Assembly: GCA_039621445.1 (NCBI GenBank)
Contig: CP154954.1
Location: 25,122,954-25,186,953, forward strand
From: Euglena gracilis
Taxonomy: Eukaryota
DNA length: 64,000 nucleotides
Direction of reading: 5' to 3'
Under the pieces are notes generated by a model. The model saw only the letters and a program-made list of their open reading frames with translations, did not search any database and was not told where the DNA came from. The stretch's first letter is position 1. Each line of letters starts with the position of its first letter. Positions 9,858 through 47,860 of the stretch are shown one piece after another. The translations under genes were made by a program, and so were the position numbers.

Positions 9858-9895
<38 letters not shown>

Positions 9896-9900: not shown

Positions 9901-9989
9901 GTTGCGCAGGGACGCCACCAGGGTCTGGGCGGAGGAAGGGGGATGGGTCTGCTGGTGCACAGGAGGGGCGGCGGTGGGGCAGGGACCCT

Positions 9990-21984: not shown

Positions 21985-23825
21985 AAACCCACACACATAC
22001 CCACCCACACGAATGGAAATCCGCTACAAGGGTCGCAGGCCTTCCTCGGGGTAGCCTCCGAAATGCCCACCCCGGTTGGTGGGGCAGCGCTGCCCCCCTT
22101 GGGCCCAAGGAGAAGGTCTGGGCTGCGGTCCATCGAAACCTCCGGAGGCGGTCACCGTTTGTTCCTATGTTATTTGACGCACACCGTGTGTCATCGGCAC
22201 GTCCGATTACTGCATCTGGACAAGTGGGGAAGTATTTCAGGATGCCCGCGCCAAGTTGGTCGTCTCTGGTCAGAAAAATCATTTTGGAGGAGAATACCGC
22301 TGTCTATGTTATGTCCAGGTTAACACCTCCAACGTGCCATTGCCATAGTTCTTATTCGTGTGTTTCATGTGCCGTACTTTTTGACGGCAGAGTCTTGAAA
22401 TTCATAGGTAAGGTGACAGGCTACCTGGTTTGGAAAGGTTGGCTTTCAAATTTCTCCATAGGAAGTCCCTCTGCCCCCGCCTGGATGTGCATGCAACCCG
22501 ACCGCACCCCCACTGGCTTCTTTCACCAAGTTGCAGCCATCCCTCAATCTTTCTCGTTCCTTTTCCGCACCTTTCGTCCCAGGCACCCTTTCGTCCAACC
22601 TTGAAGGCCCTTTGTCGAGGGGTCCCTCATCAGCCCCCCTCCTTTTGGCCACCGCAGCCCCGCCATAGATCGTATTCCGCAACGCCTGTATTTGCCTCAG
22701 TCATCCCTCCCCCTAGCGCTTCGCTCTGATACGCGACGGCCCTCGCACCCCTGTTCCTCAGGCACCGTTTGAAGTTGAACTCCCCTCGGTCTGTTTCAGT
22801 TCCAGTTTTGATTACCTTTGTTTCACTCTGGCCCCAGTTGGGCGAAAAATTCAGGGGGGGGCTTAGGCAGCGCATCTCGCACCTAAGCTTTTTTTTTGGT
22901 CGGTGTGCGCATTTTCACACACGTCCAAATTTTTGACTTTGGCGCTGGCGTCACAAGGGTCGAGTGTGAGAGGGAGGAGGATTGGGCAAAAAAGAAATAA
23001 TTTTTGGCCCTGGCTGTCCTGGGAGTTACATGTTTTTTTTGTTTTTTTTTGTGGTCGGAATGACACAAACACCCCCAGACCTATCCCTCCAAAGTGAGAA
23101 AACACCGACAAAAACAGCAAAACCCCAGTACCGCCACCCCCCATTTCCTGTTTGACAACCGCCAGCGCCAGGTGGTGCTCTGGAGGGGGTGGCAGGTCCA
23201 CCCCTTGGCTTGCTTTTTTTTTTTGTAGTTTAGCAGCACGTTGTGGAGTTTTTGGAAGTTGGCTGCGAAAGGAGTGGAAGTGCACATGCCACATAAACAA
23301 TGGACTGTTCGAGAATTCTGCCACGGGGGGTTGATGACAGGGTTTGATATAAGGAGGGCGTACATGGTTTAGGTGGGGGGTGTCCCCCACCCCCCCCCCC
23401 CTCCTGGCCAGCAGGGGGGGGTCCGGACCACCCCCCCCCCCCCCCCGCCAGGGCCTGCCAGGGGGGTCCGGACCGACCCTGGGGGGTATCCCCCCCAAAA
23501 AGGGTCAATTTTATCCTCCAGCGCTTCGCGCCGATTTTTTTTTGTTGCATTTTTGGCACATTTTTGCCCAAAAAGTGCCCAAAATGGCACTTTTGGTCGT
23601 TTTGGGGGGTCAAAAATTTTCGGCCCGGCGCTTTGCGCCGGGCCGAAATTCAGTCACCCAGACCGCGCACCTGTTTAGGTAGGGCGGGGTGTCCCCCCAC
23701 CCTCCCCCTCCTGGCCCGCAGGGGGGGGGAGGGTGGGGACCGGACCACCCCCCCCCACCTGTCCTTATATCGAACCCTGGTTGATGAGGGGCATCCAGAA
23801 CACAGAAGGACTGCCACCAGTTTAC
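14030..23825 (-). CDS. Possible multi-exon minus-strand gene (fragments near 23150-23825, 22440-22810, 21580-21790, 18730-18850, 17790-17880, 16190-16320, 14510-14630, 14030-14150)
   Basis: Several protein-like open stretches on the - strand, e.g. PKTPQRAAKLQKKKASQGVDLPPPPEHHLALAVVKQE and EDFQQLSRNDAQETSIPNPWDLFLVNL. No recognisable domain and junctions not assembled. Confidence 0.3.
16821..16930. mobile_element. Minimal 110-bp MITE, CAGGGCAGTACGGGAA family
   Basis: CAGGGCAGTACGGGAA ... TTCCCATACAGCCCTG with the family GGGTCGACCCC motif. TSD degenerate. Confidence 0.7.
17900..18382. mobile_element. hAT-type MITE, family CAGGGGTTTTTTT, with internal T-rich expansion
   Basis: TIR CAGGGGTTTTTTTT / [33 protein letters not shown] (7/8). 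Homologous to 39370, 40756 and 42330. Confidence 0.9.
19617..19735. repeat. (TG)n microsatellite
   Basis: Direct observation. Confidence 0.95.
20978..21375. mobile_element. Tc1/mariner-type MITE (TA TSD)
   Basis: TA|CCTCCCCCCCCCTTGTCTAAGCACC ... GGTGCTTAGACAAGGGG...GGAGG|TA. Three internal copies of AAGCACCACCCCCCxGGTTCTTACCCAT. Confidence 0.88.
23338..23779. mobile_element. hAT-type MITE, family CAGGGTTCGATATAAGGA
   Basis: TIR CAGGGTTTGATATAAGGA / TCCTTATATCGAACCCTG. Perfect TSD GTTGATGA (23330-23337, 23780-23787). Close relative of 32285-32713. Confidence 0.93.
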
Positions 23826-28538: not shown

Positions 28539-29591
28539 ATGGCCAAGCTCCGGCTGTGCAGCGGCTGCGGCAAGGGGCGGCCCAAGTTCCAGTGCCCGAC
28601 CTGCAAGGCCGCCGGGGGCGACGAGGGCTTCTTCTGCACGCAGCGCGCGCCTGCGTCCGGCCGGCCCGGGCCGGGGCAACTGCGTTAGGGGTGGCCAAGG
28701 GCCCTCCTTTCTTCTGCGCTTTTCAGCGGCTCGAAATGGGATGGCGTTGCCTCATCCCTGAGCTCTTGATCTTCAACTTCAGTCACGTTTTCAATGTCAG
28801 TCACGGCTGGTTGGGCGACCTCCCCCCCCCACTCTCCCCTGGGAGGGGCCAGCAGGGGGTATTTTGCCAGTTGCACTATGCATTTTTTTTGCATAATTTG
28901 CTTTTTTTTGCACAATGTGAAACTTGCTAAAGTCGCATTTTTTGCATTTCTTTTTGCGTATTTTGCCTTTTCTATTTGGGGGCAATCGCACAGGCAAATT
29001 GCTCTACCACCAGACAACTAAAATTTGCATACTACACATTTTTGGGCCAATTTTTCACTAACAGCGTGTTGAGTATAAGTGCATCTCAGGAAACCAACCA
29101 TGTTATTTTTCAAGTTTGCACTACACTTTATTTTGGTGTCCTATGGATATACTATGCTACAATATGCATGCTATATGCTTGCATATGCTATGCAGCAAAT
29201 GCAAATTATAGATGCATATGCTGTGCACCCTGTTGCATAGCAAATAATGTTGGAAAAAATTGCCGGGAGGAGATGAAAATTCTAAGTCCTTTCCAGGAAA
29301 GTGTACAGCAGCTCCTAAGGAACGACTGCGTGCAACTTGCATTTTTCTTTTGCATTTGTTGCATTGCATATTTTGGGGTGCTTTTTTTGTTGCATGTTTT
29401 CCCCTGGCGGCCATGATACCCCGAAGCAGGGGTCCCAGGTTTGTTTTGTTTTCCCGGAGGGAACCCAAACCTGAATCTCGCCTCCCCCCCCCCGGGCTCC
29501 CCATCTACGCTTAGCCTCCACAGTCCACAGGGACGCAGGCGTGGAGGCGGCCTGCTTCAAGGAGCACTGGCCCGGCCACCGTGCCCTGCAC
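28539..29591 (+). CDS. Exons 1-2 encoding a C6H2 zinc finger: [49 protein letters not shown]
   Basis: C-x2-C...QCPTC...FFCxxxCF...W..H...H pattern matches the zf-C6H2 N-terminal finger of methionine aminopeptidase 1. Confidence 0.88.
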
Positions 29592-32500
29592 ACCTCAGCT
29601 GGGGGGCGGCCTTTGTCCGAGGGACGCGCCGGCCAGTCCGCCTTCTTCCACGTGGGAGCCGGCGGGGCCCCCGCTGATGTCCAAGCGACGCCGGCACAAA
29701 CGTTGCTCAGTGTTGCCCGTTCCCCGGGGTCAGCCTGGGCAGCCCCCCACGCCGGCGGCCGCTGCCCCTGCGGACGCCGCCGCGGACGCCACACAGCGTG
29801 CGGCGGCGGCGGCGGCAGCGGCGGCGGCGAAGGAGGCGCAGCGGGCAGCGCTGCGGCAGGCGGCGGAGGCGAAGGCGCGCCAGGCGAAGCGCGCGGCGGA
29901 CGCGGCGCAGCTCACCGCGGACATTACTGCGGCGCTGGCAGGTGTGTGCCATCTTTCCCCCCCCCCCCCCCCCCGGCGCGGAACCAACTTCAATATTTGC
30001 GGTGAACGATGGCCAGACTGAAGGCCAATCTTGTGATTGGGCGGGGGAGTACTGGTTGTTACGTTGTGAGAAGTGCCGGTCCTGGGCAACGGCCCTCACC
30101 AAGCCTTGGGCACCAGATCACTGGGGCCGCACCCAAGGTGAACAGGCAAGGCCGGTGAAAACGGTCAAAGTCCGAATGCACCTGGCGGGGGGTTGCGGAT
30201 TAGACTGTCGGTTCCTCCTCGGGTGGCCCAGTGGGGGGCTACCTTCGGAGATGCCCTGGAGGATCAAGAGAGGGATATTCAGGAACGACGGAGAAGAAAG
30301 AAGAATGGTCCACCAAGCCGACACCACCAGTCCAAGCATCCACTGCCCGGGGTCTAAAAGCTGTTATGCAAAGGATAAGGATGTTTGGAGGCATGGAACG
30401 ATGGTTTTCCTGTTTGTTCGTGGGGACACTTCGTTTTTCTTTTGGAAATAGACCCCTCCTTCTCACCCCCCCATCCCCTGCCCACTGCCCACGTTGGACC
30501 ATTGTATTTTCATTTGGCGGGTTTGGCGGTACTTCTTGTGCAACTGCAGGGTCAGATCCCCGAGCAGGGGGGGGGGGATTGTGCTTTTGGCTCACTGAAG
30601 GAAACGAAATGAAAAGGGTGCAAATGTTTGTAACAGCGGGGGGGGGGGTGGCAAAATGCCCCAGAATCAAAAATAAAAATATCTCTTGAATTGCCCCATC
30701 TCCCCACCTCCATATCCCCCTCACCCCATGCCACTCCCCACAACCCCAAAGCAAATTGTCAATCCAATGTGGCACAAAACGACGGAAGAGGTAAATAATT
30801 TAAAATAATGGCACAATTTGGAGTGAAAAGAGAATTCCTGTGCTTGAATCCGACAAAGAAATCTGACAGGTCAGGCACTCCTCCAGAAAAAGGTTATTGA
30901 ACATTTTGAAGCTTTGGAACATTTATGCACGGCCAAGGCTGCATAGAGGTGGAGGTGGAAGTAGCAGTTTTTCAACTTCCTCCATCTCTATGCCACCTCG
31001 ATGTCAAAATGCCAACGAAAATGTCTCACAAAGTATAATTTATGACAAGAAAAGGCCCCCGGGCGCTTGGCCCAGATTGAAGGAAAGGCCAGGGGGCACC
31101 CTTGTGGGGACCAGGTTGCATGGTAAAAAAATGTGGCGGGCATGTGCAAGAAGCCGAAGGCCAGCTTGAGGGAGGCCAAGTTTGCATGTAAGGAGGAGGG
31201 GGGCCAAGCGCCGTGGGGGGGGGGGCGGAGGGGAGGTACGTAATGTGTGCCGTGCCAAGGCTGCGGAGAGGCAGAGGGAGAGGTCAAAGTCCTCTACCTC
31301 TATGTTAGCCAGCTCGACCTCTACCTCCACCTCCATGTCACCGCTATTTCCATAAAACATCAAAAGCGCTTGTAAGAGGCACCAGATGCGTCATTTTTAG
31401 CAAGTTTCCATCAAAATACATCATTAACAGTTTGGGAATGAGCAAAAATACCTGGTTTGGTGGTTTCAAAAGGTTTCACAGAGATATGCGACAAAAATGA
31501 CCAAATCATGAAAATTGTCATGTGGTTTGGGGCGGGTATGAGCCCCCATGAGCACGTGAGCATGCCGCATATGAGCGCCTGGGCACACCTCACGCCTACC
31601 ACCAATGCCTGTCCCTAATACGCATTGCGGGCGAAGGTTACGCACGTGGTCCGCCCCCTCCCTCGCCCCGCCGGACCCCAACGCAGGGCAGAGCCACGTC
31701 CTCGTCGCCGGCCCCGCGGAGCCGTCCCCCGCCTCCCTCGCCGCCGCCGCCCAGCTCGCCCACCAAACCCTGCAGGCCGGGGCGGCGGTGCTGATCCTCT
31801 GTGCGGCCCCTCAGCCAGGGGGGACGGCGGGGGCACCCGGCGCGGGGCCCCGGCCGAGAATGCCCCCGGCGGTGGTCTGTCCGCAGCGGGCCTCAAGCAG
31901 TGCGGGCGCAGTGGTGGCTCTGGTGCGGGGCGGGACGGACCGAACGGACAACCCGAGGGACCCTGCGATGGGGCCTTCCATGGGGCCAATACCCCCCTCC
32001 TTGTCATGTTGTGGTGGTTTCCCTTGGTTTTGTTTGTGACGCCTCGGTGGCCCCCAGCCCACACCCCTCCGGCAACCCTGCCCTCCTGTGGTTGGGTCAC
32101 CAGCCCCCCTCAGAATAGAGCTCAGGTGGTGCGGGCCCATCCCCCCCTCCTGTTTGTCTCGAGGCTTCGATTCCTTCGTTAAACACGTCCTTTGCGCCGC
32201 CAAAACTCGACCTCAGCAGGTGCTGCAGTGGGTGGGGGGTCCGACCACAACGCTCCTTCCCGTCGGGCCCCCAACCCCTGGGCCCAGGGTTCGATATAAG
32301 GAGGGCGTACATGGTTTAGGTGGGGGGGTGTCCCCCCCCCCCCCCCCCCTCCTGGCCCGCAGGGGGGGGTCCGGACCACCCCCCACCCCCACCTGCAAGG
32401 GGGGTCCGGACCGACCCTCGGGGGGTACCCGGGACCCCCCCCAAAAAGGGTAAATTTTTTCCTCCGGCGCTTTGCGCCGATTTTTTTTGCATTTTTGGCC

Positions 32501-35500
32501 AATTTTTGCCCAAAAAGTGCCCAAAATGGCACTTTTGGTCGTTTTGGGGGGTCAAAATTTTTCGGCCCGGCGCTTTGCGCCGGGCCGAAAATCGGTCACC
32601 CTGACCGCGCGACTGTTTAGTGGGGGGGGGGTGTCCCCCCGCCCCCCCCCCCTCCTGGCCCGCAGGGGGGGGGGTCCGGACCCCCCCCCCTCCTCTCCTT
32701 ATATCGAACCCTGCCTGGGCCCCCCCGTGTACACTGCGGCTGTTTTTTTCGGTGCCGTTATCCTTTCTTCGGGCCTGGCTGTTTTCGTCTCTGGCCCTTT
32801 TTGCCTGTGTGCGTTGGGGTGCCCCCCCCTTCTTGTCTGTTTGTGGCCGACACTGACTTCGCCTCTGGCCCAGTTCGTGTGGTGAGTGGCCAGGGACCCC
32901 TGACCCCAGTGCCCGGGTGTTGCTCCCCCTGGCCAGGCGTGCAACTCTGCCCCCCCCCCCCCCCCCCCTTGCGGCCGCCCCTCTGCGGCCACCTCGCCGT
33001 GGCGGCGTACGCGGCGGTGCGGCGGCGGGCGGCGCCGGGGCTGCAGCCGTTCCGGGCGGGGCACGTGTTCGTCGGGGCGAACCCCTCCCTGCCCCTGCGC
33101 AAGGTTCGCCCCCCCCCGCCCCCCCTTGATGCTGGCCCCGCCCCCTCGCTTCAGCGGTGTGGTGTAGTGTGGGGCGGTGTCTGTTGGCACACGAGCCAGG
33201 CCCCTGGTGGGGGAGGGAACCCCTGCAGAGCTCCTGGCCACGCCAGTTGTTTTGTAAACAAATCCATGGCAGCACAGCTGCCATCCAGCCCTGACATCTT
33301 CTTTTCGACGTCGTTTGGCGGCTGGCCACCAGATGTTCTGAGGGCTGAAGTTGGGTCAACAATACCCCAACATGGTCCACGAATCGACGACTGGACAATT
33401 TCTGTTTGAAATGTGTGCCTTTTCATTTTTGAAACCCCCAAGGGCTTCTACGGCACTCCGGAACTGCCGAGCTGACCTTTCTTTGTTGGTGGGCAAGCAC
33501 AGGGGTTGTGGTTCCTGTGCGATGGTGTGCCTCCCACCTCCGGCTGTCCCTCAGGTCGCTGCGGAGTGCCAGCTGCTGGTGGCGGTCCCCGCTGCCTTCC
33601 AAGCCCACGCACCAACTTGCTCCCGGAGCAATGCAATGCGTGCAAGGCAGTCGTTTATGTTTTGGGGGGGGGGAGGAATCTGTGGGTTCTTCAAAGTTTC
33701 GGCCCACCGTATTCTTGGAGAACTGCAGCGGATGGAAACAAAGCTCATTTTTAAATTTAAAATTGGACATCTGTTCAATTTTTTTGTTGGACACTTTTTT
33801 CACCCTCCAGCAAAGAGCGCAAAGATCCATCTGGGGTGAAGAATGACAACGGTGCTTTCAGTAATATCCTTCAAACCGTTTTGCACATTGTGTTTTTTTC
33901 ATGGAAATTGGGAGAGGTCGAATGGGATAATTTTGCTCTTTGAACCAAATTTTCTTGCTTCTAAGGTGTTTCGAATTTTTGTATGTCTTAATTTGGTTCT
34001 TTCGCCTTAGATTGTGTACTTTTTAAAAAAAAGAACGGTTGAACTCAAATTGGCGAATGCATCACCCGAAACCGCTGAAAGAGGCTCTGACCTCAATCAC
34101 CCCCAAGTTTTTGAAATTGGTCACCCAGAGGGGTGGGGTTACCATCTGTATAAAACACGTAAATGGCCGAAGTCCACATCATCACTTCTTCCAGGCTTTT
34201 TTAATACATTTGAAGGATGGCCACACTGTGGATACTCTTTTTTTCCACCCGGCCTTCCGCACACCGTTTCGGCGGAGGCCCTGGCGTCTCAGGCCGACCC
34301 CTCCCCTGTTGGTGGGTGCCCGCCGCCCTCTCCCCCAAGCCCCGGCAGCCCTACGCGGCGGTCATCCTCCTCGGGGCGGGGCTGCAGCCCCACGAGTACA
34401 GCAAGGCTGCCCTGCCCGACAGCCAGGCCCCCGCCGCCCCCACCAGGCGAGGCTCAATATGAAATTTTGCATTCAACGGTGAGAACTTCTGGCGACCGAA
34501 AACTGGAGGTAGGAGGGGGTCCCCCCCAGTTTTGGACGGGTCCCCCCACCCCCCCTCCGAGACTCCCACGCAAGCCTGGGGGCCAAGGCGGGAAGCAGGT
34601 GCCTCAATGTCGAGCCCCTGGCGCGTCCAGGGCGGGCTCTCACTGAAGTCATTGGGACTGGACCACATCATGGGATGTCCTGTCCGGGGCTGCTCGGGGT
34701 TGGGGGGGGGGCAGATGTTTCAGTGGCCCAGGCTTGCCCTGGGGCCCTGCCGCCGCCCGGTACATGGTCGCCACCGCCGCCCCCGAGGGCGTGCCCATGC
34801 TGCAGCCCTGCCAGGCCCTGAAGGGTCTCCAGCAGGTGGCCCCACCCTGGAATGCTACACCCGCCCCCAATTGGACGGATAGCCCCCCCCCTCCAAGACA
34901 GGGAGTTTCTCAAGCTGGAGGGACCTAGCCCAGAGGTGCCAACCAACACCTTTTTTCCTGCCGGCAGTTCCCAGCCAGCCTGCGGAACCCCCCACCCCAG
35001 GGTCTGCTGCAATCAAGTTGTGGCCGGCCTGGAACCCCCCCCCCGGTCACCCCTTCAAAAAAACTACTGAGGTACAACAGCACTGTCAGAGATCAGTAAG
35101 ATATGCTCTCCTTTGACCACACGCAACTACCCTCTTTCCAGAGCAGTCTGCCTTGGTGCTGGTTGGGCAGTTATCAACATGTGATCATGAAACCATTTGA
35201 ACCTCTTCACGGTTCATTTTAACGTCAAAATTGACTGGAAAACTTTTTTATATTTGAGTATATTTTTTGCATTAATTGCATTTGTCTAATTTCACGTGTA
35301 TTTTTATTATCATTATAATTGAAGCTGATTTTCATCTGATACATCTGAAATGGCGTATCTTGAAATGGAAATCGTTGACCAAGACTTATCGAGTCCGTTT
35401 TGATGGTAGGTTTGTAAGTGTGGAGTGTGTCAGACAATTGCTGAAGGGTTTGAGTACCCCCCCCCCCCGGGGGGGCTGAAGCTAGTCCAAATTGGCCAGT

Positions 35501-37041
35501 GGAAATCCTAGTGGACCCCCTGGGTGTTCCGGTAGCAGGCTGGCCAGTGGCAGTGACTGGCGTGAAGCGCCGAATTTTTTTCCTGGAACCCCAAGACTTG
35601 TCCCCAAAAATGCCCGTTTTGACCATTTTGGGATTTTTATTTTTGCCAAAAATACATCGACCTCCTTTCCACCTCGTCGCGCAGCGCTGGAGGTTTTTTT
35701 TTTTCCAGTTGTGGGACCAGGCTTCTTTTTACAAGTGTGGCTAAAAGTTACGGAAGACAAACATTACGGCAAAAAAAATTCCGAAAGTCAGAAGATCCCC
35801 CTCCCCCTCCTGGGTGGAGGGGGATGGGTAGTTGGGTCTGCGGCCGGCCCCCCGGGGGAGTCCCGGCTGGAGGCCCGGGTATGGGTTTCAGCACAAAGCC
35901 GAAAGTTTTCTGGGAAATGCCCTCAGACGGCCTGATTTTGGGGGGGTCCCGCACCGGGCTGGATGGAGGGGACCACCCCTCCCCCTGGGGGGTCTTACAA
36001 AGAAGCCTGGGGAACCCCTGGACCCATGGTCCAGCTAGTGACTTTTTTCCAGTGTCCAGCAAAATGGCTGGCCAGTCCCCCCCCCCCCCGGGTCCTTGAG
36101 CAATGGCACGATGTACGTGTCACAAGAAGAGGTGTGTAAAAAGGCGAAAAGGGTCCTTTTTGCTGGAACAGTTTGATGAGCATGAGCAGGCTATTTCATT
36201 TTTTTTTGAAGAAAAAACCGGTGAATTTACAATGCCCGCCAATTTTTCGGTGCACGTGCGTTCTTGTCCTTCTGTTTTATCACCTTTTCATCTGGGGCAG
36301 GGAATTTCTTCAGGACCCTGGGGAAGGTGCAGGGCAGGACGGGAATCGGCCAAACAGCCAGGGTGGTGGGTGGGGGGGTCGACCCCCAAGAAATTTCCCG
36401 CCGCCTTCGGTGCCCGGAAAAATTGTGAAACAAATCTGCGAAAATGCTGTGGGTGGGTGGGGGGGGTCGACCACCCCAGCAGGCTTTTCCTGTACAGCCC
36501 TGGGCAGGGGGTATCCAGCCGGTCGGAAAAAGGGCTGGAAGGGGATGCAGTCCAGCTTCCGGGCTGCACCCAGCGGGTATCCAAAAATTGGCAGAACAGC
36601 CCAAATTCAGTTGGGTTGAGATATTTGAGCCATTGTTTTCAGGCAAACTCCAAATCCTCAAACACCCCCCCTTTTCACCACTTTTGACACCCTTTTTGAA
36701 TAGTTTTGGCACTTTGGGCAGAAAATCATTTCCCTCACCTCTGGGTCAAAAACCTCATTGGTGATGGGCTGTGGGGGCAGTCTCAGGGAGATTGGGGGGT
36801 AGTTTTGGGTAGGGGGAATGTGTGATTGGTGGTGCAATTTCTTCCTAAATAAATACAATTTTTGGATGAGCGCTGGGATGAGCGTTGGGATGAGTTTTGG
36901 ATGATCCCTCCCCACCCCGCAGGAACCGGCCGAGGACGACCCCAGTTCCCCAGCGCCGCTGTACGACCAGTGCGATGACTACCTGACCCACCTGCTGCTG
37001 CAGACCTTGCACCCCGGCCGGGCAGCAGAGCATATCCTGAA

Positions 37042-37072
<31 letters not shown>

Positions 37073-40000
37073 GCGTGTCTGTGTGTGTGTACATGTGTGT
37101 GTATGTGTGCGTGTGTGTGTGCGTGTCTGTGTGTACGTGTGTGTACGTGTTTGTGTGTGTGCATGTGTGTGTACGTGTGTGTACGTGTCTGTGTGTTTAC
37201 GTGTGTGTACGTGTGTATGTACATGTGTGTGTATGTGTGTGTATGTGTGTGTGCGTGTGTGTACGTGTGTGTGTGTGTGTGTACGTGTGTGTACGTGTCT
37301 GTGTGTGTACATGTGTGTACATGTTTGTCTGTGTGTAAGTGCGCCTGTGTATGTGTGCGCCTGCTTCATGTTTGCGTGTGTGTAGGGCCACGTTTCAGAT
37401 CCCAGAAAATTTGGAACCCTGACTTTTTGGTTGTCTGAGGCTCCGCGGAGCCTCCATATCTGGTTGGTCACCTGAGGTTCCACAGAGGTTCCGCAGAGCC
37501 TCCTCCTGGTAACCAATTTTTTTTTTGACAACCACCGTTTGTTTTTTTGGAATTAATCAGAAAATGAAGATATTTTGAAGGAGTAGGGCTGGGGTTGAGA
37601 TTCCACACAGTTGAACCTTTCCCGCTGATATATTCGGTCGTCATATTTGCCTTTCCGCGGTGCTCAGCAAACACAAATAGTCGTCCTCTTAAAACAGGGA
37701 TGCCGAGCGAGGGTTCCTGCCTGTGTCTTATCCAAGTTGGGGTCGGTGGTACCCTGTATGAGCAATTCCCAAATTCCCAAATTGTCACGAGAGAAGAACG
37801 ACAATTTTATCGAAAAAAGCTGAGCTTTAGGAGTCCGCCGCGGAGCCTGATTACCTGGAGGCTCCCCAGCGCCTCCGCAGAGGCTTCCAAATTATTCGCA
37901 AGGCACAATTCCACTCTGCAGGAGACCCCCCCCCCCGGATTGCTGCGGTGCGGCTGTCTTCCGGCCTTTCCGTTCACGATGGGCGGAGGAGCTGGTCGCC
38001 CCCCCCCTCCCCAGGCCATCCCGCCGCTCAGCCAGCCGCAGGTGCGGCAGTCCGTGCGGTGCGTCGTGGAGGCGATGGATCCCGATGGCCGGGGCCCCCT
38101 CCCCTCCCCATCAGTCCACCCCCCCCCACGGGGGCCGGGGTTCGGAGTTGTGCTGCCCCGAGGCCGGGCCTTGCCGCGGGCCCTTCCGTGTGGCCAAGGC
38201 TGGGAGATGGCTCTGTTCCGACGTGGAGAACGGGGCCCATGCGTTGGCACTGCGCAGCGGTCGACCTTTTCCGCACACTTCTGTCTTAGGGCAAAAAGCA
38301 ACGATGTTTGAAGCGGTGTAAGCCTTGTGAGGGGAGACCACCCAAAGGGGGCGGGAAGGGCCGGTGAACATTCCCCTGGTGTCCATTGCTAGAAATAGAA
38401 ACATTTAGGGGAGGTACCTTTGGACTTGACCCAGGCCCCAAATACCATTGTTTTAGTTGCTGAAAGGGCAAAGTATTTCATCTGATGCAGTGAACTGCAG
38501 AACTGCGCAGATTTTGATTTATATTAATATTTCACGTGTCAAAATCAGAAGCCTGTCTTTCCCTTTTTTGGCTTCGGCAATCCGGAAATTTATGAATTGA
38601 CGTTGAATGACACTGGGTGTTGCCATGTTGTTTTTTTTGGTCTTAATTCTGCATGTTTTTTTTTTCTAGATCGGCCCTGGGGGAGAAAACTCTTGTCGGG
38701 GGGTTCGTGGGGCAGGCCCCGGATGATCGAGCAGTTTCCGTTGGTGCCACCGCCCAGTCCCAGGGCAGCCCCCCTTCCCCGAGGGGCAGGGCAGAATGGG
38801 AATCGGCCAAACAGCCAGGGTGGTGGGTGGGGGGTCTCTGGGTCGACCCCTCCCCCCACCACCTCTTCCCATATTTATGGGAGCACCAATCTTTGGACCC
38901 CAAAACTTTTTCCCGGCGCTTTCGGCACCAGGTGCATTTTGGACCCATTTTGGCACCAAAATTTGGTCCAGTTTCTTTGACCTTCGTTTTTTTTACCCCC
39001 CTCCTAAAACTGCCAATTTTTGAACCTGAAACCTGAGTTTTTTTTGTGCAAAAGAATGTGGTTCTCCATCAAAAACCATGTATTTTATGTTCATTTTTCA
39101 AAAAAATCAAAAATTTACCCCGGCCAAAACCCTCGTTTCCCCAAAATTGGTGAAAATGCTGTGGTGGGTGGGCGGGGTCGACCCCCCACCTCCCAGGTGA
39201 GGGGGGGGGGTCGCCCCCCCCCCCCCCAGGCCTTCCTGTGCTGCCCTGCCGAGGGGCCACTGCCCAGCCGGCGGGTCGGGCGCTGCCGCCGTCGCTGCTG
39301 GTCAGCCTCTGCAGCGCGGCGCCGAAGCCCAAGTTCGGGAAGTGCTCCGCCGTCGTGATGGGTGTCGCCCAGAGGTTTTTTTTTAGTCGTGGACCCCCGG
39401 GGGGGGGGGGCGGGGGGGGGAGGGGGGGGTGCGGTGGGTGCGCCCGGCCGAGCCCCCCCCCCCCCCCGGGGGCCACCCCCCAGGGGGGAGTGGGATTTGC
39501 TTTTCGACGCCGAAGGCGCCGAACATTTTTATTGAAAAGGTGCTATTTTTGGAATTTTTCGCAATTTTTGAGTGGGTCCCCCGGGACCCCCCCCCCCAGG
39601 GGGTGGGTGGGGGACCCCCCCTCCCCCCGGGTCTTTAAAAAAAAAACCCCTGGCGTTGCCACGGCGCTGCGGTCGGCGCTGCAGGCGCACCCCGTGCTGC
39701 CCGGGCGGCCCCCCCGCAAGGTGTGGGCCGTGGAGGGGGGGCGGTGGTGGTGCTCAACGTGTGGTCCACCCCTCGCCGTTGGCTCTTGTTTGAGCCTGGC
39801 TTGACTGTCCACTATTTATTTATATGTATTTTTAATTTGTTTTACAAATGCCTTGACTCGAATATCTTGAATACCTTTCACAATCTAAATTTTGATTTTG
39901 TTTTTTATTATTTTATTGTTTTGTTTTTGTATCGAAAAGCCTTTTATTTAATATTAAGTCCCCAAATACAGAATCGAATAGCATTCCATTGCTGTCAGTT

Positions 40001-43000
40001 CCTCATTTTGAGGTACAGTGGCCTGACACATTAAATGGGCGGCGAATTAATGCCACTGACAAGCACACCGGATTCGTGCTGGTGGCAGGGTAAACGGTAA
40101 GTGGCCGTCTGTCTCCCACCACTGTCACACCGAACCCCGAACCCCCCCCCCCCACCCAAGGAGAGGGCTTTCCCCTCGCACCCCACAGGAGAGGGGACCT
40201 TTCTTGAAAAGAATTCCCGCTACCATCGTCTTTAAATGAAGCAACAAAGAAAAAATACTAAAATAAACAATAAAAACAATTTAATGAATTGATTAAATAA
40301 ATTAATCATCGATAAAGAAATTACACTCATATATTATTATAATAATAAATAATAACTTAATAGCAATAAAAGGGGAGCACTCTCAAGATCGTACCCCCAC
40401 TTCAACATCCGCTCTGAATTCCAAGCAACGGGGTTCAGCGTGTGTCAACCCCCCCCCTCGCAGGGGCGGTGGTACTTCCACGCCGCGGTGGCCCATGCCC
40501 ACCCCCACGTGGAGCCGGAGGTGATGGACGACATCGCCCAGGCCCTGGACGTCCGGTGGCTCGTGAAGCCGCCGGTGCGGGAGCCCATCCTGGTCAAGTG
40601 TGCTCCCTCCCCCCCGCACACACCCGGATTTGCTTTTTTTTTGAATTCCCCATTTCTCCCCTTTTTTGGCAACTCCTTCTTTTCCCGTCTTTTCCGTTCT
40701 TTATATCTTCCCCCTCCACCCCCCTCCGGCACAGCGTCGTACTCAGCGTCGGCACCAGGGGTTTTTTTTTAGTCTCGCACCCCCGGGGAGGGGGGGGGGC
40801 AGGGTGGGTGGGTCTGGCCGAGCCCCCCTGGGGGGTCCCCTCAGGGGAGTGGGATATACTTTTTTGAAATTTTTTGAAAAAGTCCCTTTTTTAGCACTTT
40901 TCGCGATACTTTGGCCATTTTTGGGGAAAGGTGAGTGGGTCCCCCGCCCCCCCTGGGGTGGCCCCCAGGGGGTGGGTGGGTGGGTGGGTGGGTGGGGGGG
41001 ACCCCCCTCCCCCTCGGTCTAAAAAAACCCCTGGTCGGCCCAGTGTCGTTGAATGCACAGCATTTTTTGTTGCACGCACCCCATGCCAGTGTGCCAATGC
41101 CACTTTTCCGGACGTCACCCATTTCCCATTCAAGCACCACCAACGGCACCCTCCTGCACCCGTCCCTGCCGTTTTGGACCGGGGCGGGCGTGTCACGCTT
41201 CTCGCGCCCCGTTTCTTTCCCACCCCGGCCACGCTGCCTCCGCCTCGCCTTCCGTTGCCTCACCGCCCCACACAGGTACGGGCACCACGCGGACCTGTAC
41301 GAGTGCGTCCACGCAGTGCTGCAGCACGCCCTGCGCTACCTCAGCGTCGGGGGCCACCCCAAGGACCGGGACGCGGGGGCCCGGGACCCGCTCGGCGGGC
41401 GGTCCCGCGGGGCGGGCGGTCGTCGGGTCCGCCGCTGCCTGTTGGGCGTGATGGGTGGGCTCCCACCACACATCTGCTGTTGGACATCCTCTCACCAAAC
41501 GCCACACTCACCAAATGCCAGGAAGGCTGGTGGGTATGGCATGCGGTCAGCAGGAGAGGGGCGGGGCACAAACACTATTTGCGTTTCTGTATTTGTTTTT
41601 TGTGTGTTTTTTTTGCCAATTTACAATTTTTTGTGAATTTTTCAAATTTGCAAATTTTTTGAGTCTTTTTTTTTTTGAGGGTCCCCCCTGTGGAGCAGGA
41701 GGGGGATGTTGGACTGAGCTTCTAACCAACACGGCTGCTGGTGTGCACTGTGTCTGGAGGGGGAGGGGGACGAGGGGCTCCCGCCAGAGACCTGCACAAT
41801 GGACAGACCAGCGCACTGCTGGAGCAGCTGTGCTGGCCGGAGCTGCTGGCCCCGCTGCTGGGGCCGCACAAGAACCTGCTGAAGCAAGAGGCGAGGTGTG
41901 GCCGCTCGCCCCCCCCCCCCCAGAGCCCCCCCCCCACCCCCAACGGCCTATGACTTGGAAACACGAGCTTGAAGTGGAGCCCCACCCCGGAGATGCTTCT
42001 CTTCACTGCTGCAAGTAACACTCGGAGTGAGGTGCATTCCATTGCTTTAATTTTTTTTGAAAGTGGGAAGTTATTCCCTCACCCCTGGGGTCAGAATGCA
42101 ATGGTGTGGTCAGGGGTGTACACCAATCTGCTTGTTTTGGGCATTGTTTGCACTTGCAAAAAAGTGCGCATATTGATGTGCTTGATATTTGTTTGACTTC
42201 TTCTGCTTGTGTAAATGTGTGAAATACGTTTTTCGACATGTGTGCCGCTGGTCCTGAGTTTGAGCTGAGGGTTGAGGCTTGTTTCCCACCGAACGGCCAC
42301 CATGCTTTTCTGTTGGTATGGGTTGGCTTCAGGGGTTTTTTTAGTCGTGGACCCCCCGGGGGGGAGGGGGGGGTTGGGTGGGTGGGTCCGGCCGAGCCCC
42401 CCCCCCCCCCCAGGGGAGTCCCCCCGGAGGGGGGTGGGATATACTTTTCGGCGCCGAAGGCGCCGAAAAAGTGCTAGTTTTAGCACTTTTCGCGATTTTT
42501 GGCCATTTTTTTGTGGGCTTCCTGGGTGGCTTCGTCCTGCAGTCCATTTTGTGGATATCTCTCTTTACTCCCGCAGCGTGTACTACCCGCAGTGCTCGCG
42601 GACTGGGGACAAATTCAACGATGGCACACTGCGTGTCTTCGCCTCGTACTGGCGAGTGCGACAAATCCCCAACCGCCTGTGCATGTTTCCGCTCTGTTCT
42701 GAGTCCGAAATGGTCACAGGGGGAACCTTTCTTGCTCTCAGTTTCACCCCACATTGAAACGGGAAGGCACCATGGATTTCCACCCAGGAGCTCTCCTGGC
42801 GGTCCCTTCAGACTCGCGACTGAAAACCTTCCATCTGGAGTGCGCATGCATGTTAACTGGAGCCCTTTGTGTGTCTCCCTGTGCTAATTGGCTGCCATTC
42901 CTCCTGGCAGAGGCTTTCACCGTTGCTTTTCTTCCCTGGGGAATGGTCTTTTGGGTTACTGGTCCCTCTTCCCAGCCCTCTCACCAGCTCAACCTCACAA

Positions 43001-46000
43001 GGGACAGAAAGGCGCCAGGCTCGGGCTCGTCAGGCTCAGACCAAGTTCCCTGACAGCACCACCTTCCCGGTGTGCACGCAGAAGGCCGAGCAGCGGAAAG
43101 TGCTGCCCATGCTTTCGCCCTCTGCCATATGGCCACCACTGGTTACTTGGCCGAAGTGGATTGAGGCGTCAAATCCAAGTCTTCTCACGGATTAACAATC
43201 GGTCGTCGTTTTCAGTTTCCTCTCCTCAGGGCTGTATGGGACTCCCCGAAACCGTATGGGCAGTGGATGGGGGAGTGTCGACCCTCCACCTCCATCCTGG
43301 TGGGTTGGGGGGGTTGGGGGGTTTTGACCCCCTCCAGAACTTCCAGGGAGTCGAGTCAAAAGTTTCTGTGCGCTATGGTGGATCCCACCAGGCCTTCATG
43401 TGCAGCCCTGTTCTCCCTTTGTACGGTAGGGAAACTAAATAGTGGGACGGTCCAGGGAAACTAAATAGTGGGACACCCCAAAAAAATGCTGATCCCCCGG
43501 AGACCGTCAGCGAGTTGCAAAAGGGTTTTCAAATTGTTGCAATATCAGGAGGCTTCAATGTGTGGCATGTATAAGGTGTAGCCTAGGGCCGTGGGGGGCC
43601 TGTCAGTAACGGGTGGGACCAACATCAGCGTCGAGCACAGCAGCAAGGCAGCTGGGCATCGACGCGTGTATACCTCGAATTTGTTCGGGAGAAATGTCAG
43701 CAAAAGCACGCTGCAGAGCTGCCCAAAGTTTGTTTCGGTTAGGGAAAACACATCCTTCCAGCTTTGTGAGCAAGAAGCACGACGTCCTGGCTGCAATGCT
43801 GTGAAGATGCTGGATGACGGGTCCTGCACAGGCTTCTGCTTGGAGATAGCGGATCTCCTCGGTTTGCCAGGCGTAGGAGTGGGGAGGTCTCAGCGGTCCA
43901 TTGCGAATGATGCATTTTCCAAGCTCCCATTGAAAACCGTTCCCCCTGTGAACTGTGAGGCACAGGCTTAGCAAATGAGAGGAAACGATGGGCTGGGGCA
44001 GATGCAGCTCTCCTAGATAAGAGGTGGATTGAACACCCTGCCCCCCTCCCCCCATGCAAGGCGAAGAAACGAGGCCTGTTTGCGGCCCGCAATGAGCCCG
44101 GATCTCAACCCGATCGAGCACCTGTGGGTGCTTGTGCTCGCAAAGCTCGAAGGATGTGTTTTCCCTAACCGAAACAAACTTTGGGCAGCTCTGCAGCGTG
44201 CTTTTGCTGACATTTCTCCCGAACAAATTCGAGGTATACACGCGTCGATGCCCAGCTGCCTTGCTGCTGTGCTCGACGCCGATGTTGGTCCCACCCGTTA
44301 CTGACAGGCCCCCCACGGCCCTAGGCCATCCATTGGATGGTACTGGGTACACCTTACACATGCCACACATTGAAGCCTCCTGGTATTGCAACAATTTGAA
44401 AACCCTTTGCAACTCGCTGACGGTCTCCGGGGATCAGCATTTTTTTGGGGTGTCCCACTATTTAGTTTCCCTGCTGTAACTGTTTAGTTCAGATGAGTAA
44501 ATTGCATGGGACGCAACCACATAGAATGTTGCAGTTCAAAAGCCTGGCCAAACGCCGTTAAGGGTGACCCAGGTTTCATTGCAGCTCAACCTCACATTGA
44601 GCTGCAGAGCTTTCGGTCACAAAAAACCTGCAAATCTACCCCTTATTCTGCATCCTGCTGTGGTTCCCCCTTTTGGGGGGGCTTGGGGGCCCATTGGGGG
44701 TCAATTTGGAGTTACCCTGAAACTTGGAGCTTCTCCAGGAATGGGTACCTGCTCGGGGGGGGGGTAGGCACCTATTTGGCCCGACCCCCCCTCGGGGTCA
44801 CCAACAAAATCATCAATGGGCCGCCCTCCCAAGGTCCTCATAAGACTCTCCGTGGGCCGGGCGTGGCGGGGATCGACCAGGCCATCCAGGAGGTGCTGCT
44901 CATGATGCCCGCCGGGGACGGCCTCATGATGGCGGGGCAGCTGGGGGCCCAGCTGGGCGGCTGGCAGGCGTTCTGCAAGTGTGGCTGCGGGGGGCATGGG
45001 GGCGTGCTGGCGGCCATGCAACTCGGGGCCATGGCGACAACCGAGTGTTCGCTTTGCGTGCGCAAGGGGGGGAGAGTCTGGGGGAACTCCTTTCTGGCCG
45101 TAGGGAGGGGATGTGGATCAAAAGTTATTTCCTCCTCAGCCAGCCGGTTGGGCCATTGCCAATTTGCCAAAAGTGTCTGAAAACAGGATTTTGCGTTTTT
45201 TTGAAATCCCCTTTTTTGTGCTGGTTTTGCTATTACGGGATTGACCCACCAACACTTTCCCCTCCCCTCACTAAATACCCTCCTCGGAGATTCGGTTTGC
45301 CTGAATGGCAGAATTCGCGTAGCCCGTGAACTTTGGGAGAGACATTGGGCAACCATTGTCTTCCACGTTATTGTCTGACTGTCAGTGTTAGTCAGGGTCC
45401 CAAGTTAAAGTTAGCACGTGCCTGTTGGCAAGTGATGAGACAATGCCACAGGGCTACATACAATGTGTGCGCATGCAAACGGCCCACTTGAGGGTGGCGG
45501 CGGCACAAATTCGACTGCATGCAAGGACCGCCCTGTGGAAATAATGAGTCCACCCACAGATGCTGAAACGGTATAACGGTATCTGTTTTTGCGGTTATGG
45601 CAAGGCTGGGGAGAAGGTTTGCAGACTTTTGGATCTCTGGCCTAGGCCGTCAGGGAGACCAGGTAGCACCAACTGGCAGTGGCTGCGCTGAAGGCGTTGC
45701 TTTCGAGGCTCCCAGCATTTCGAAACGGCGCTGCAATTCACCTGAGCGGCAGGCAAATTGGCCACTTTGGGGGGACGTTGTGTCTGTCTGCTCTCATCTT
45801 GCGCAGCAAGTACGCTGTGGATTTGGCACCGTCGTTGAGAATGTTCTTCCAGAAGTTCCCCGAGCACTTCACACTGTGTGACCCGGGGACGGCGGTGGTG
45901 GATCAGTTTTGTCTGAGACGGCCACAGTGGGTCGTGTTCCCCGTCCTCACCGACACCCACACCCACCCACCCACCCAAACTCACCCACTGCTTGTTGCAT

Positions 46001-46876
46001 GAGACCTCTGTTTTCACCTTTTTTTTGGAAACATATGCTCCGGCCCTCGATCCAGCTTCTCTCGCCATCAACAACCTGAACCAAATGGGCAAGGTTAGGG
46101 TTGGGGCCAGGGCTATACTCATCCTATTAAAGGCGTTGGCTGATCCTAACCCTAATCCTAGCCACCGGAAAGGGTGGCTCAGATCGCGCAGCGGCCACCA
46201 CCCGGCGAGGGGGTCCCGCGGTCTGGCCGTCCCCGGCTGGGGAGGATGAGCGGCTCGTGAAGCGGACGGTGGCAGCGCCGGGCCACGTGCAGGTCGTGAT
46301 GCCGACCGGTCGGGCGGTGTCCGGGCTGGACGGCGACGACGAGGACGGGCAGAAGAAGAAGAAGCCTGCCGAGGCTGGAGGCTGCGGGGGTAGGGTGTCG
46401 ACAAGCGTTTGGCCGAGGCTGAACAGGAAGGCGTGGCCGACGGAGTTCTTGGCTTCTGGCGCGGCCCAGGCACATTTTACCACGTGCCCCCCGGATCAGA
46501 CGTTGGTGTCTGGGTGCCTTGGAGTGGCTGCCCATTGGACAGCCACCCCAGTGGACTCTAGACACATCCAGCCTACTTTGGGCTCAAGCACAGCACTGCA
46601 CAAGTGTACCACACAATCCGCATTTTTTGCCATTGGCGGCCGCCGTGGGGTGGGGGGGGGCAACGCCCCTTTGGCCGCCGTGGCCCCGGCCTCCCAGCGT
46701 GCCGACCCGGCGGGGGCGGATGGCGAAGGTGAAGCAGGTCCGCATGGAGGTGCTCGCCCGCCGCGTGGCCCGCAAGACGAAGATCTCCAAGCTGAAGAAG
46801 AAAAAAACCGCCCCGCCCCGGCCGTGGCTTGCCATGGTCTATGGCTCAAACCAGAAATTCATTTAACCCCTGTCTG

Positions 46877-46909
<33 letters not shown>

Positions 46910-46968
46910 GGTGGGTGGGTGTGTGTGGGTGTGTGGGTGTGTGGGTGTGGGGGTGTGGGTGTGGGTGT

Positions 46969-47041
<73 letters not shown>

Positions 47042-47860
47042 TGTGAGTGGGTGGGTGGGTGGGTGGGTGTGTGGGTGTGTCAGTGTGTGCAGTTTGTGGG
47101 TGGTTTTCATGGGCTGGAACACCCCTCCCCCCAAAGGGACTGGGGCATCTGGTGTCGGTCCGACTTGGCTGAAGGCCGGCCTGAAAACCTTCTCCCAGTG
47201 TGCTTTGACCAATTCTCGAGAGCCTTTGGTTTGGTAGGTAGGTCGTCTCCCCTTCTTCCGGGTAAATGTGTGGGTTTCAGAGAAAATAAATGCCCAGGGG
47301 TTGCTTTTTTTCACGTTTAAACAAAAGTTGTTGGCTTTTCTCCTGTCTTTCCTCCCCGCCCCGCCTTGCGTAATTTGGAATTGGAATTATTTTGATTAAC
47401 TTCCGTTTTTTTTCCTTCCGCCTTTCCTGTTCACTTTTTCTATAAAGGTTCGATTTTTTCGCCAATAACCAACCCATGCGTTTTTAAAAAATGCGGACAG
47501 CGCACACCCGGGCATTCATTCATTTGGATGCCGGGGTGTGACACACGATGGAGTCGAGTGGAAACCGCATTCTTTACGGAGGGTGCCCCACCCCCGTCAC
47601 TCTCCAAGTCAGGTCTGTCTCGCCCGCCAAGCCGAGGCCGGGGCCCAACCCGCAAGAGGGGCCGCGGGCTCATGCCCCGCCGCAAGGTGTTCTGACCGGC
47701 GCCCGTGCACCCGCGGTAGCCTGTGCCACCCCATCCGTCCCCCTTGCCCACCCCCTGAGCCGTGCTGGGGCCCACACTGGCCGCTGCAGGGAACTCACGC
47801 TGCGTGGTGTTGGCTGGGGCGTAGCATAAGAAAATTTGACCCCACCCCCCGGGGTCCAGC
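28539..47860 (+). CDS. Multi-exon gene: zf-C6H2 (MetAP1/MYND-like zinc finger) protein with possible LOTUS/OST-HTH-like domain and basic C-terminus. 3' end unresolved (may reach ~49110).
   Basis: Exons: 28539-28642, 29549-29598, 29753-29941, 31687-31800, 31887-31922, 32164-32231, ~32970-33103, ~34340-34430, ~34745-34830, 36923-37042, 38015-38058, 38716-38743, 39268-39366, 39658-39720, 40464-40597, 40735-~40752, 41276-41401, 41788-41895, 42577-42655, ~43057-43099, ~44855-44978, 45807-45879, 46242-46361, 46720-~46810, ~47827-. Many GT-AG junctions are phase-compatible. ATG is preceded by a pyrimidine tract and AG (28529-28530). Confidence 0.8.
28643..29548 (+). other. Nonconventional (non-GT-AG) stem-loop intron
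   Basis: 5' gcg-CGCGCCTGCGTCC pairs with 3' GGACGCAGGCGTG-gaggc|G. Removal rebuilds the zinc-finger CTQAC spacing. Confidence 0.82.
28853..29406. mobile_element. Degenerate hAT-type element nested in intron 1
   Basis: CAGGGG...CCCCTG ends. TSD GGGGCCAG/GCGGCCAT (6/8). Internal TTGCAT-rich short repeats. Confidence 0.6.
32285..32713. mobile_element. hAT-type MITE, family CAGGGTTCGATATAAGGA (intronic)
   Basis: 19-bp perfect TIR CAGGGTTCGATATAAGGAG. Perfect TSD CCTGGGCC (32277-32284, 32714-32721). Confidence 0.95.
35435..36105. mobile_element. Degenerate MITE (family of 56106-56545) with a second MITE nested at 35718-36009
   Basis: Shares GCTAGTCCAAAT...GAAGCGCCGAATTTTT...TTTTCCAGTGTC with 56106-56545. 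Inner element ends are CAGGCTTCTTT / AAAGAAGCCTG. Confidence 0.75.
36330..36502. mobile_element. hAT-type MITE, family CAGGGCAGTACGGGAA
   Basis: CAGGGCAGGACGGGAA ... TTCCTGTACAGCCCTG. TSD GGAAGGTG/GGCAGGGG (6/8). Confidence 0.85.
37043..37383. repeat. Degenerate (TG)n / GTGTGTAC microsatellite starting at a GT splice donor
   Basis: AAG|gtgtgtgt directly follows exon 36923-37042. Confidence 0.92.
38787..39248. mobile_element. hAT-type MITE, family CAGGGCAGTACGGGAA (long form)
   Basis: CAGGGCAG...CTGCCCTG. Perfect TSD CCGAGGGG (38779-38786, 39249-39256). Confidence 0.93.
39370..39652 (+). mobile_element. hAT-type MITE inserted in a coding exon; predicted nonconventional intron 39367-39657
   Basis: CAGAGGTTTTTTTTT ... 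[35 protein letters not shown]. Removal gives ...[20 protein letters not shown]. Confidence 0.88.
40756..41033. mobile_element. hAT-type MITE, family CAGGGGTTTTTTT, at an exon boundary
   Basis: TIR CAGGGGTTTTTTT / AAAAAAACCCCTG. TSD GTCGGCAC/GTCGGCCC (7/8). Confidence 0.92.
42330..42524. mobile_element. Internally deleted MITE, family CAGGGGTTTTTTT (inside GT-AG intron 41896-42576)
   Basis: Intact left end, right end reduced to CCTG. TSD GTTGGCTT/GGTGGCTT (7/8). Confidence 0.82.
43227..43410. mobile_element. Degenerate MITE related to the CAGGGCAGTACGGGAA family
   Basis: CAGGGCTGTATG ... CATGTGCAGCCCTG ends. GTCGACCC motif. TSD poor. Confidence 0.6.
43424..44476. mobile_element. Tc1-derived fold-back element with ~320-bp inverted arms
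   Basis: TA on both sides (43422-43423, 44477-44478). Arms 43453-43772 and 44135-44473 are near-perfect reverse complements. Confidence 0.93.
44083..44304 (+). pseudogene. Tc1 transposase C-terminal fragment
   Basis: [14 protein letters not shown]...[19 protein letters not shown] matches the Tc1 SPDLNPIE motif and SMPxR...GxTxY tail. Confidence 0.92.
45880..46241 (+). other. Nonconventional stem-loop intron
   Basis: gac-CCGGGGACGGC ... GCCGTCCCCGG-ctggg|G, a perfect 11-bp stem. Joins FPEHFTLC to EDERLVKR in frame. Confidence 0.8.
46362..46719 (+). other. Nonconventional stem-loop intron
   Basis: aag-CCTGCCG ... CGGCGGG-ggcgg|A plus inner stem GCTGGAGGCTGCGGGG / CCCCGGCCTCCCAGC. Joins DGQKKK to MAKVKQVR in frame. 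Confidence 0.72.
46876..47088. repeat. (TG)n/(GGGT)n microsatellite
   Basis: Direct observation. Confidence 0.95.

Follow-up and report, generated by a model that had tools for sequence, protein, structure and literature searches.

A miniature transposon copy in a coding exon of Euglena gracilis, very probably removed from the mRNA as a nonconventional intron

We analysed a 64,000-nucleotide (nt) stretch of contig CP154954.1 of Euglena gracilis (hereafter the window), in which a coding exon of a 705-residue protein gene is interrupted by a 283-bp MITE (miniature inverted-repeat transposable element) that belongs to a dispersed repeat family. Very probably, this element was inserted with an 8-bp target-site duplication and is now precisely removed from the transcript as a nonconventional intron, with one copy of the target restored. 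The intron is of a known kind, and a MITE origin for such introns, duplication-like repeats at their junctions, and one case of an 8-nt repeat are already in print. What seems to be new is an intron that can be shown to copy a dispersed MITE family, together with a splice geometry that removes exactly one duplication. The features that carry this reading are as follows.

39370-39652, no strand assigned: non-autonomous element (MITE), 283 bp, of the CAGGGG(T)n family, from the sequence and from repeat and blastn alignments
39370-39384, no strand assigned: left terminal inverted repeat CAGAGGTTTTTTTTT, from the repeat search; pairs with the right end in the predicted RNA fold
39638-39652, no strand assigned: right terminal inverted repeat AAAAAAAAACCCCTG, from the repeat search and the predicted RNA fold
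39362-39369, no strand assigned: left copy of the 8-bp target-site duplication, GTGTCGCC, with its first 5 nt in the exon and its last 3 in the intron
39653-39660, no strand assigned: right copy of the target-site duplication, GCGTTGCC, with its first 5 nt in the intron and its last 3 in the exon
39367-39657, + strand: nonconventional intron of 291 nt (3 nt, the element, and 5 nt), from an RNA joint that can slide by up to +3 with the mRNA unchanged
39291-39366, + strand: upstream half of the interrupted exon, from joints 38251>39291/39292 and 39366>39658
39658-39720, + strand: downstream half of the interrupted exon, followed by the GT-AG intron 39721-40463

The exonic element and its removal from the mRNA

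The element runs from CAG at 39370-39372 to CTG at 39650-39652. Its ends match as inverted repeats at 14 of 15 positions (CAGAGGTTTTTTTTT against CAGGGGTTTTTTTTT), and the repeat search also gives a 16-nt repeat at 94%. The flanking copies GTGTCGCC and GCGTTGCC agree at six of eight positions; random pairs of 8-mers drawn from 38000-46800 agreed on average at 2.06 positions, and reached six or more in 0.8% of cases. Around the site, the letters read GTC GTG ATG GGT GTC up to 39366, then GCC, the CAG of the element at 39370, its CTG at 39650-39652, GCGTT, and finally GCC ACG GCG CTG. A preliminary description of this locus, made from the letters of the window, had placed a 283-bp CAG...CTG element with an 8-bp duplication at this site, and the comparisons of ends and flanks agree with it. 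Terminal inverted repeats, a duplication of fixed length, and several short dispersed copies are the features of a MITE, and all of them are found here.

The same description held that the element interrupts coding sequence. Joined at the RNA-supported joints, the exons yield 1133 nt with one frame free of stops, while the remaining two frames hold 12 and 4. In addition, P0023, a distant relative (24% identity), aligns through the insertion site without a gap.

RNA was placed on 37400-46800 from two raw runs with the same species label (X21 and X24) and from two contig sets (X15 and X18), which are small-share sets guessed to be RNA. The joints, 15 of 24 of which were listed, define a gene on the + strand. 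Joint 39366>39658 (ATGGGTGTC|GCCACG) skips 291 nt, with 3 letters that fit either side, and is supported by five reads in X21, four reads in X24, and one contig of 1679 nt in X15. Since 291 is the sum of 283 and 8, the removed stretch is the element plus 8 nt, and one copy of the duplicated site is left in the mRNA. P0001 (eukprot:EG_transcript_4041), a protein of a separate public set that is transcript-derived to judge by its label, also reads straight across the 39366/39658 joint. Reads, contig, and protein therefore match, within a slide of four positions, the removal of element plus 8 nt and the junction ATGGGTGTC|GCCACG that had been predicted.

Two other fates of the transcript had been named in the preliminary description. 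The first, retention of the element, does not describe the main mRNA, from which the element is absent: the 291-nt skip is seen in nine reads and one contig, and P0001 agrees. The second, use of a GT-AG pair at 39356/39684, is not the main form either, as this pair is absent among the joints listed and would delete residues that are present in P0001. An open reading frame (ORF, 39154-39804) does run across the element, which is rich in G+C, and 291 is divisible by 3; with the element missing from the mRNA, we treat this frame as chance.

The main mRNA form fits four placements of the intron, from 39367-39657 to 39370-39660. The intron ends at these placements are GC..TT, CC..TG, CC..GC, and CA..CC, and thus no compatible placement has the GT/GC-AG ends of a spliceosomal introner. 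The first placement alone (39367-39657) leaves 3 nt before CAG and 5 nt after CTG, and opens the next exon with a purine (G, 39658). CAG then occupies +4 to +6, preceded by GCC, and CTG occupies -8 to -6, followed by GCGTT, so that the triplet positions stated in the preliminary description for euglenid introns, and the purine exon start that it had inferred for this site, are both seen at this intron. In PMC12501133, knock-ins defined the code 5'-N3CDG...CH'GN5-6|R-3'. According to that work, the 5' spacer must be 3 nt, with a 1-nt change not tolerated; the 3' spacer is 5 nt, with 6 tolerated; the triplets CDG/CH'G are required; and the downstream exon must start with a purine. We infer the cut at 39366|39658 from this published code, within the four-position slide. 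The two mismatches between the duplication copies had been expected to fix the cut, and they do limit the left cut to 39366-39369, but they do not single out the 3 + 5 arrangement.

A predicted RNA fold (-187.3 kcal/mol) pairs the ends of the element, in the minimum-free-energy structure as well as in the centroid, and such pairing may also take place in vivo. The locus therefore presents what is characteristic of a euglenid nonconventional intron: no GT/GC-AG ends, the triplets with their spacers, the purine, ends predicted to pair, and absence from the mRNA.

On this basis, we propose the following mechanism. A coding exon of a euglenid gene would have received a non-autonomous DNA transposon of the cut-and-paste type, with inverted ends of the form CAGRGG(T)n, and the insertion would have duplicated 8 bp of the target. 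The inverted ends would pair in the pre-mRNA and draw the junctions together, and nonconventional (non-GT-AG) splicing would then remove 3 nt, the element, and 5 nt, a total of 291 nt. These spacers of 3 and 5 nt add up to the 8 bp that the insertion had duplicated, so the mRNA would regain a single target site and, with it, the reading frame. The element appears to have arrived by transposition of a hAT-type element, and the match between the spacer lengths and the duplication length appears to be causal rather than coincidental. Any such insertion into an exon would presumably be silent at the RNA level, a point that published knock-in work helps to support.

Related elements, the 8-bp register, and the host gene

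The preliminary description had called the element a member of a multi-copy family. Indeed, three relatives lie within the window, each with a flank duplication of 7/8, and all three can be aligned to the exonic element at the ends and in several blocks of the interior. The family thus has four short and dispersed copies of 195-483 bp within 64 kb. The relatives are listed here.

17900-18382, no strand assigned: 483-bp copy of the family, expanded internally by T-rich sequence; flanks TTTGGAGT and TTTGGAGA, 7/8
40756-41033, no strand assigned: 278-bp copy of the family, within the GT-AG intron 40598-41275; flanks GTCGGCAC and GTCGGCCC, 7/8
42330-42524, no strand assigned: truncated 195-bp copy of the family, within the GT-AG intron 41896-42576; flanks GTTGGCTT and GGTGGCTT, 7/8

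The right end of the truncated copy differs from the inverted repeat of the family, and we rejected this copy as a second MITE intron given its position inside a GT-AG intron. The end motif CAGRGGTTTTTTT (at most one mismatch) occurs nine times in the window, compared to 1.02 expected, and none of 100 shuffles reaches nine. Two internal motifs of the family were also scanned against metagenomes, with 0 and 0 matches.

The 8-bp register extends beyond this family. Across the whole window, there are 193 CAG...CTG pairs with at least 10/12 inverted-repeat matches; nine of them have flanks agreeing at six or more of eight positions, compared to two in an offset control. When flank identity was compared at lengths from 6 to 10, it peaked exactly at 8 in all ten of the CAG...CTG elements examined. 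Outside the exonic family, the nine pairs include the elements 6421-7218, 23338-23779, 32285-32713, and 56106-56545, which have perfect 8-bp duplications, and the element 13794-14011, which has a flank duplication of 6/8. The 64 kb contain at least five CAG-ended families with 8-bp duplications, at least four of them in addition to the exonic family.

The end types of the further families are CAGGCACCTA, CAGGGCAGTACGG, CAGGGTTYGATATAAGG, and CAGGCTTTTGCTTAAGG, and further CAG...CTG elements start at 36330 and 38787. Several of these additional elements are nested inside introns of the mapped gene; one example is 32285-32713, within nonconventional intron 31813-32990. Summed contig depth in the RNA-type sets is very high at 38656-39283 and 42424-42737, and many contigs run from MITE sequence into unrelated letters. 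These repeats are probably transcribed from many further copies at other places in the genome.

The family might also have spread in the opposite direction, from an intron, for example if an excised circular intron RNA were reinserted, in which case the exonic copy would represent the source type. Excision of nonconventional introns as full-length circles has been reported (cited in PMC11282704 and PMC12501133) and speaks for this route; the RNA placed on 37400-46800 gave no back-joint evidence of such a circle. Against it, the copies that lie within GT-AG introns or beyond the mapped gene have 8-bp duplications of their own, in unrelated sequence, which are the mark of staggered DNA cleavage, and five different CAG-ended families share the 8-bp register. 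We therefore consider spread from an intron highly improbable, and retain insertion of a DNA element into the exon as the explanation.

The host gene was mapped as follows.

28539-46815, + strand: host gene as mapped, encoding a 705-residue protein whose last residues lie beyond 46815, from the mapping of P0001 and the RNA joints

P0001, whose label EG_transcript_4041 we read as Euglena gracilis, is 100% identical to exon 40464-40595 and is the one protein at that identity. It carries an N-terminal zf-C6H2 (MYND-like) finger (Pfam, E 1.5e-12), and two of its residues differ from the window, near 29574 and 34412, in the region of introns 1-9. A word-based homologue search with P0001 residues 290-520 returned nothing beyond P0001 itself, Pfam on ten single exons gave nothing at E < 0.1, and Rfam on 37000-47000 gave 0 matches.

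Between 28539 and 46815, 21 introns were mapped, 8 of them GT-AG and 13 nonconventional; introns 10-21 are supported by reads and introns 1-9 by the protein only. Among all introns of the gene, 39367-39657 is the only one that copies, end to end, a repeat seen elsewhere in the window. The paired triplets of the nonconventional introns, located 3 nt into the intron and 5 nt from its 3' end, include the following.

31813-32990, 34421-34754, 38252-39290, and 39367-39657: CAG/CTG
41379-41788: CGG/CCG
42646-43038: CTG/CAG
45880-46241: CCG/CGG
46368-46698: GAG/CTC

Four RNA-supported introns have paired triplets that do not follow the published CDG/CH'G code, with spacers that are still 3 nt and 5 nt long, namely 45880-46241 (CCG/CGG), 46368-46698 (GAG/CTC), 43105-44870 (CAT/GTG), and 38087-38219 (CGG/TCT). 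The window also holds long arrays of short repeats, either GT/CA-rich or with a period of 8-10 nt, at 8900-10100, 19600-19750, 37043-37357, and 46877-47089; the array at 37043 begins exactly at the GT of the conventional intron 37043-38014.

Evidence against the reading and rival explanations

Several observations weigh against a MITE insertion that is removed together with one copy of its duplication, and we consider them here along with the alternatives on which they bear. To begin with, the exonic copy is only 74-75% identical to two other copies (gapped blastn). The family is therefore old and the insertion is not fresh, and as a consequence no empty site backs the insertion event; such a pre-insertion site would read ATGGGCGTTGCCACG. 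In addition, a minor fraction of the mRNA may retain the element, and reads from other copies confound the depth inside it. The fold of the element has a modest z-score of -2.24, with 3 of 100 shuffles folding as well or better.

A second mRNA form belongs to the same set of observations. It shows a joint at 39360>39652 that again skips 291 nt and does not agree with a 3 + 5 cut of the window allele. The form was read as carrying GGCGTT, the letters of the right-hand copy, in place of GGTGTC, both of which encode Gly-Val. It is supported by one read in X21 (1/6 of the joint reads), three reads in X24 (3/7), and the X18 contig. This support, together with the identical skip, is what would be seen if the same pre-mRNA were cut in an alternative way, with removal of the left duplication copy and the element. 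However, the spacers for such a cut would have to measure 7-9 nt on the 5' side and -1 to 1 nt on the 3' side, while even a 1-nt change of the 5' spacer is not tolerated (PMC12501133).

The RNA also differs from the window in about half of the reads at 41315, 41887, 42629, 43054, 46256, and 46310 (and at 39291), and contigs X15 and X18 differ from each other at 41315. Together with the P0001 mismatches, these half-and-half differences suggest two expressed alleles or near-identical gene copies, and two expressed alleles fit the first five of the positions as well as the difference between the contigs. Because the code forbids the alternative cut, and given the half-and-half exonic differences and the disagreement of X15 and X18 at 41315, a second allele is the likelier source. 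The second form is thus probably a second allele, and an alternative cut of one pre-mRNA is improbable. If so, the exon of the second allele would equal the right-hand copy of the window, the target before insertion would have read GCGTTGCC, and both mismatches would have arisen as synonymous changes in the exonic copy of the window.

The preliminary description had also proposed to look genome-wide for an 8-nt junction duplication among nonconventional introns, and in this gene such a signal is not general. With the 13 nonconventional introns of the gene lined up by their triplets, the 8 nt that lead into each 5' triplet were matched against the 8 nt that follow the 3' triplet. Own-pair identity averaged 3.31/8 over all 13 introns; for the 12 non-MITE introns it averaged 3.08/8, compared to 2.94 for 156 cross pairs, and there is thus no signal. 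The matches concentrate at position 6 (10/13) and position 8 (7/13), which resembles a splice motif. Intron 34421-34754 reaches 5/8 and is perhaps duplication-like, and the MITE intron 39367-39657 reaches 6/8, a value attained by 2/156 cross pairs.

These results bear on whether 3 + 5 = 8 is a coincidence, with the spacers set by the splicing machinery, most introns not derived from insertions with 8-bp duplications, and the MITE simply spliceable. A coincidence would account for the 12 of 13 nonconventional introns whose junction identity does not rise above the cross-paired controls, for the matches at positions 6 and 8 (a purine at the start of the intron and of the exon), and for a 3' spacer that accepts 5 or 6 nt (PMC12501133). 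We still regard it as rather unlikely, as the sole recognisable family-copy intron has 6/8 in a comparison where so few cross pairs do, the single newly gained intron in print has 8-nt repeats (PMC4770533), short junction repeats occur in 84.4% of E. agilis introns (PMC12501133), and erosion is to be expected in older duplications. The 8-nt signal may be confined to young insertions. Either the older duplications have eroded or most of the nonconventional introns of the gene arose otherwise.

A causal match would also allow a wider proposal, which we make only tentatively and are somewhat inclined to doubt. Nonconventional splicing may be a precise excision at the RNA level that is matched to one transposon superfamily (hAT-like, CAG-ended), and that erases insertions in either orientation if a purine follows the cut. 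Most nonconventional introns would then descend from such insertions, and their 'slidable' repeats would be eroded duplications.

The superfamily itself calls for separate consideration. The hAT label is plausible, and is drawn from the 8-bp duplication and the CAGRG ends. The duplication register of hAT elements is seen in 10/10 of the elements, and the terminal bases of the exonic element, CAGAG and CAGGG at its two ends, fit what we take to be the hAT terminal consensus, YARNG. The target preference of hAT elements is nTnnnnAn; in the nine left duplications, a small number of sites, T occupies position 2 in 6/9 and A occupies position 7 in 1/9. No transposase or autonomous partner was found in the 64-kb window among ten ORFs scanned with Pfam (9 of the 158 stop-to-stop ORFs of at least 130 amino acids, plus one of 95 amino acids), none of which gave a hAT domain, and a weak match to DDE_3, of the Tc1/mariner type, at 44017-44304 (E 0.0017) fell below the cut-off. 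In the same area, 43603-44433 is an inverted duplicate of a Tc1/mariner-like transposase tail (DLNPIEHLW type), located inside the 1766-nt nonconventional intron 43105-44870.

The transposon removed as a nonconventional intron could also belong to another superfamily that duplicates 8 bp of its target, or to an as yet undescribed one. Duplications of this length are not restricted to hAT, the ten ORFs yielded neither a hAT transposase domain nor an autonomous partner, and, at the few sites available, the preference given above shows up at position 2 more often than at position 7. On the other side stand the 8-bp register in every element examined, ends that all start with CAGG, CAGA, or CAGC and so fit the presumed YARNG, and the fact that none of the tested features contradicts hAT. 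We see a superfamily other than hAT as a serious possibility, albeit one that we doubt, and continue to use the hAT label as plausible.

Significance and comparison with known systems

The idea of a MITE origin is not ours, as the preliminary description had already acknowledged: PMC3935182 proposed MITE-like elements as the source of these introns, at a time when no transposable element had been identified in euglenids. In PMC4770533, intron 4 of gapC in E. agilis ACOI 323 was described as a new nonconventional intron specific to that strain, with 8-nt direct repeats at its junctions, which the authors take as a trace of double-strand-break repair. In PMC11282704, CAG/CTG are treated as inverted repeats and the junction repeats are called 'TSD-like', with no length given in the accessible text. 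The genome-wide study PMC12501133 (2025) found that nonconventional introns make up 71.8% of E. agilis introns, excluded the introns with junction repeats from motif work, and still called the origin of nonconventional introns unclear.

The accessible parts of PMC11170887 and PMC12621601 added nothing on duplications. The words 'duplication' and 'hAT' are absent from the accessible text of PMC12501133 and PMC11170887, as is 8-bp or 8-nt wording from that of PMC11282704. Our literature search found no paper that links hAT to Euglena nonconventional introns or that equates 3 + 5 with the length of a duplication, although supplements and subscription papers may hold it; for instance, the 8-nt pattern could already be visible in Table S3 of PMC4770533 and in the sliding-distance figures of the PMC12501133 supporting information.

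Where euglenid nonconventional introns come from has been an open question since the 1990s, and the MITE idea has rested on the inverted ends alone. This locus offers a concrete case in which an intron also copies a dispersed MITE family, with RNA-backed removal of the element and one duplication copy. The hypothesis thereby becomes countable, through the 8-nt junction register, the clustering of introns into transposon families, and an autonomous partner. It also offers a mechanistic reason for the experimentally defined spacers of 3 nt and 5 nt, and suggests that the signal of origin is lost when 'slidable' introns are left out of motif analyses. Should the link be general, the Euglena genome would tolerate exon insertions of one transposon class because a second splicing system undoes them exactly.

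Among known systems, hAT MITEs and the maize Ds elements resemble the present element in their 8-bp duplication, CAG-type ends, short non-autonomous copies, and removal from transcripts. Ds elements are said, in work attributed to Giroux and colleagues in 1994, to be spliced from maize genes. Removal of Ds uses cryptic spliceosomal sites and is usually imprecise, whereas that of the present element would be exact by the arithmetic of spacers and duplication.

A second comparison is with the introners of Micromonas and other algae, and with the noncanonical transposon-derived introns of Amoebophrya, Polarella, and Fritillaria (PMC11282704). These are likewise short DNA transposons with inverted ends and duplications that insert into exons and are removed as introns, and in them, as here, the duplication helps to define the junctions. 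Their removal, however, depends on the spliceosome, sometimes in a modified form, and their duplications measure 3-5 nt (PMC11282704), while the present intron follows the euglenid code and has a duplication of 8 bp.

The closest relatives are the euglenid nonconventional introns themselves (PMC12501133, PMC3935182, PMC4770533), which the present intron resembles in its triplets, its pairable ends, the purine, its removal, and in sharing a gene with GT-AG introns. With gapC intron 4 of E. agilis ACOI 323 it also has in common the 8-nt repeats, although no repeat family is reported for that intron in the accessible text (PMC4770533). The present intron differs from the euglenid introns described so far in being an end-to-end copy of a dispersed repeat with its own 8-bp duplication, whereas for those introns, in the texts as accessible, a MITE origin is a hypothesis drawn from the inverted ends.

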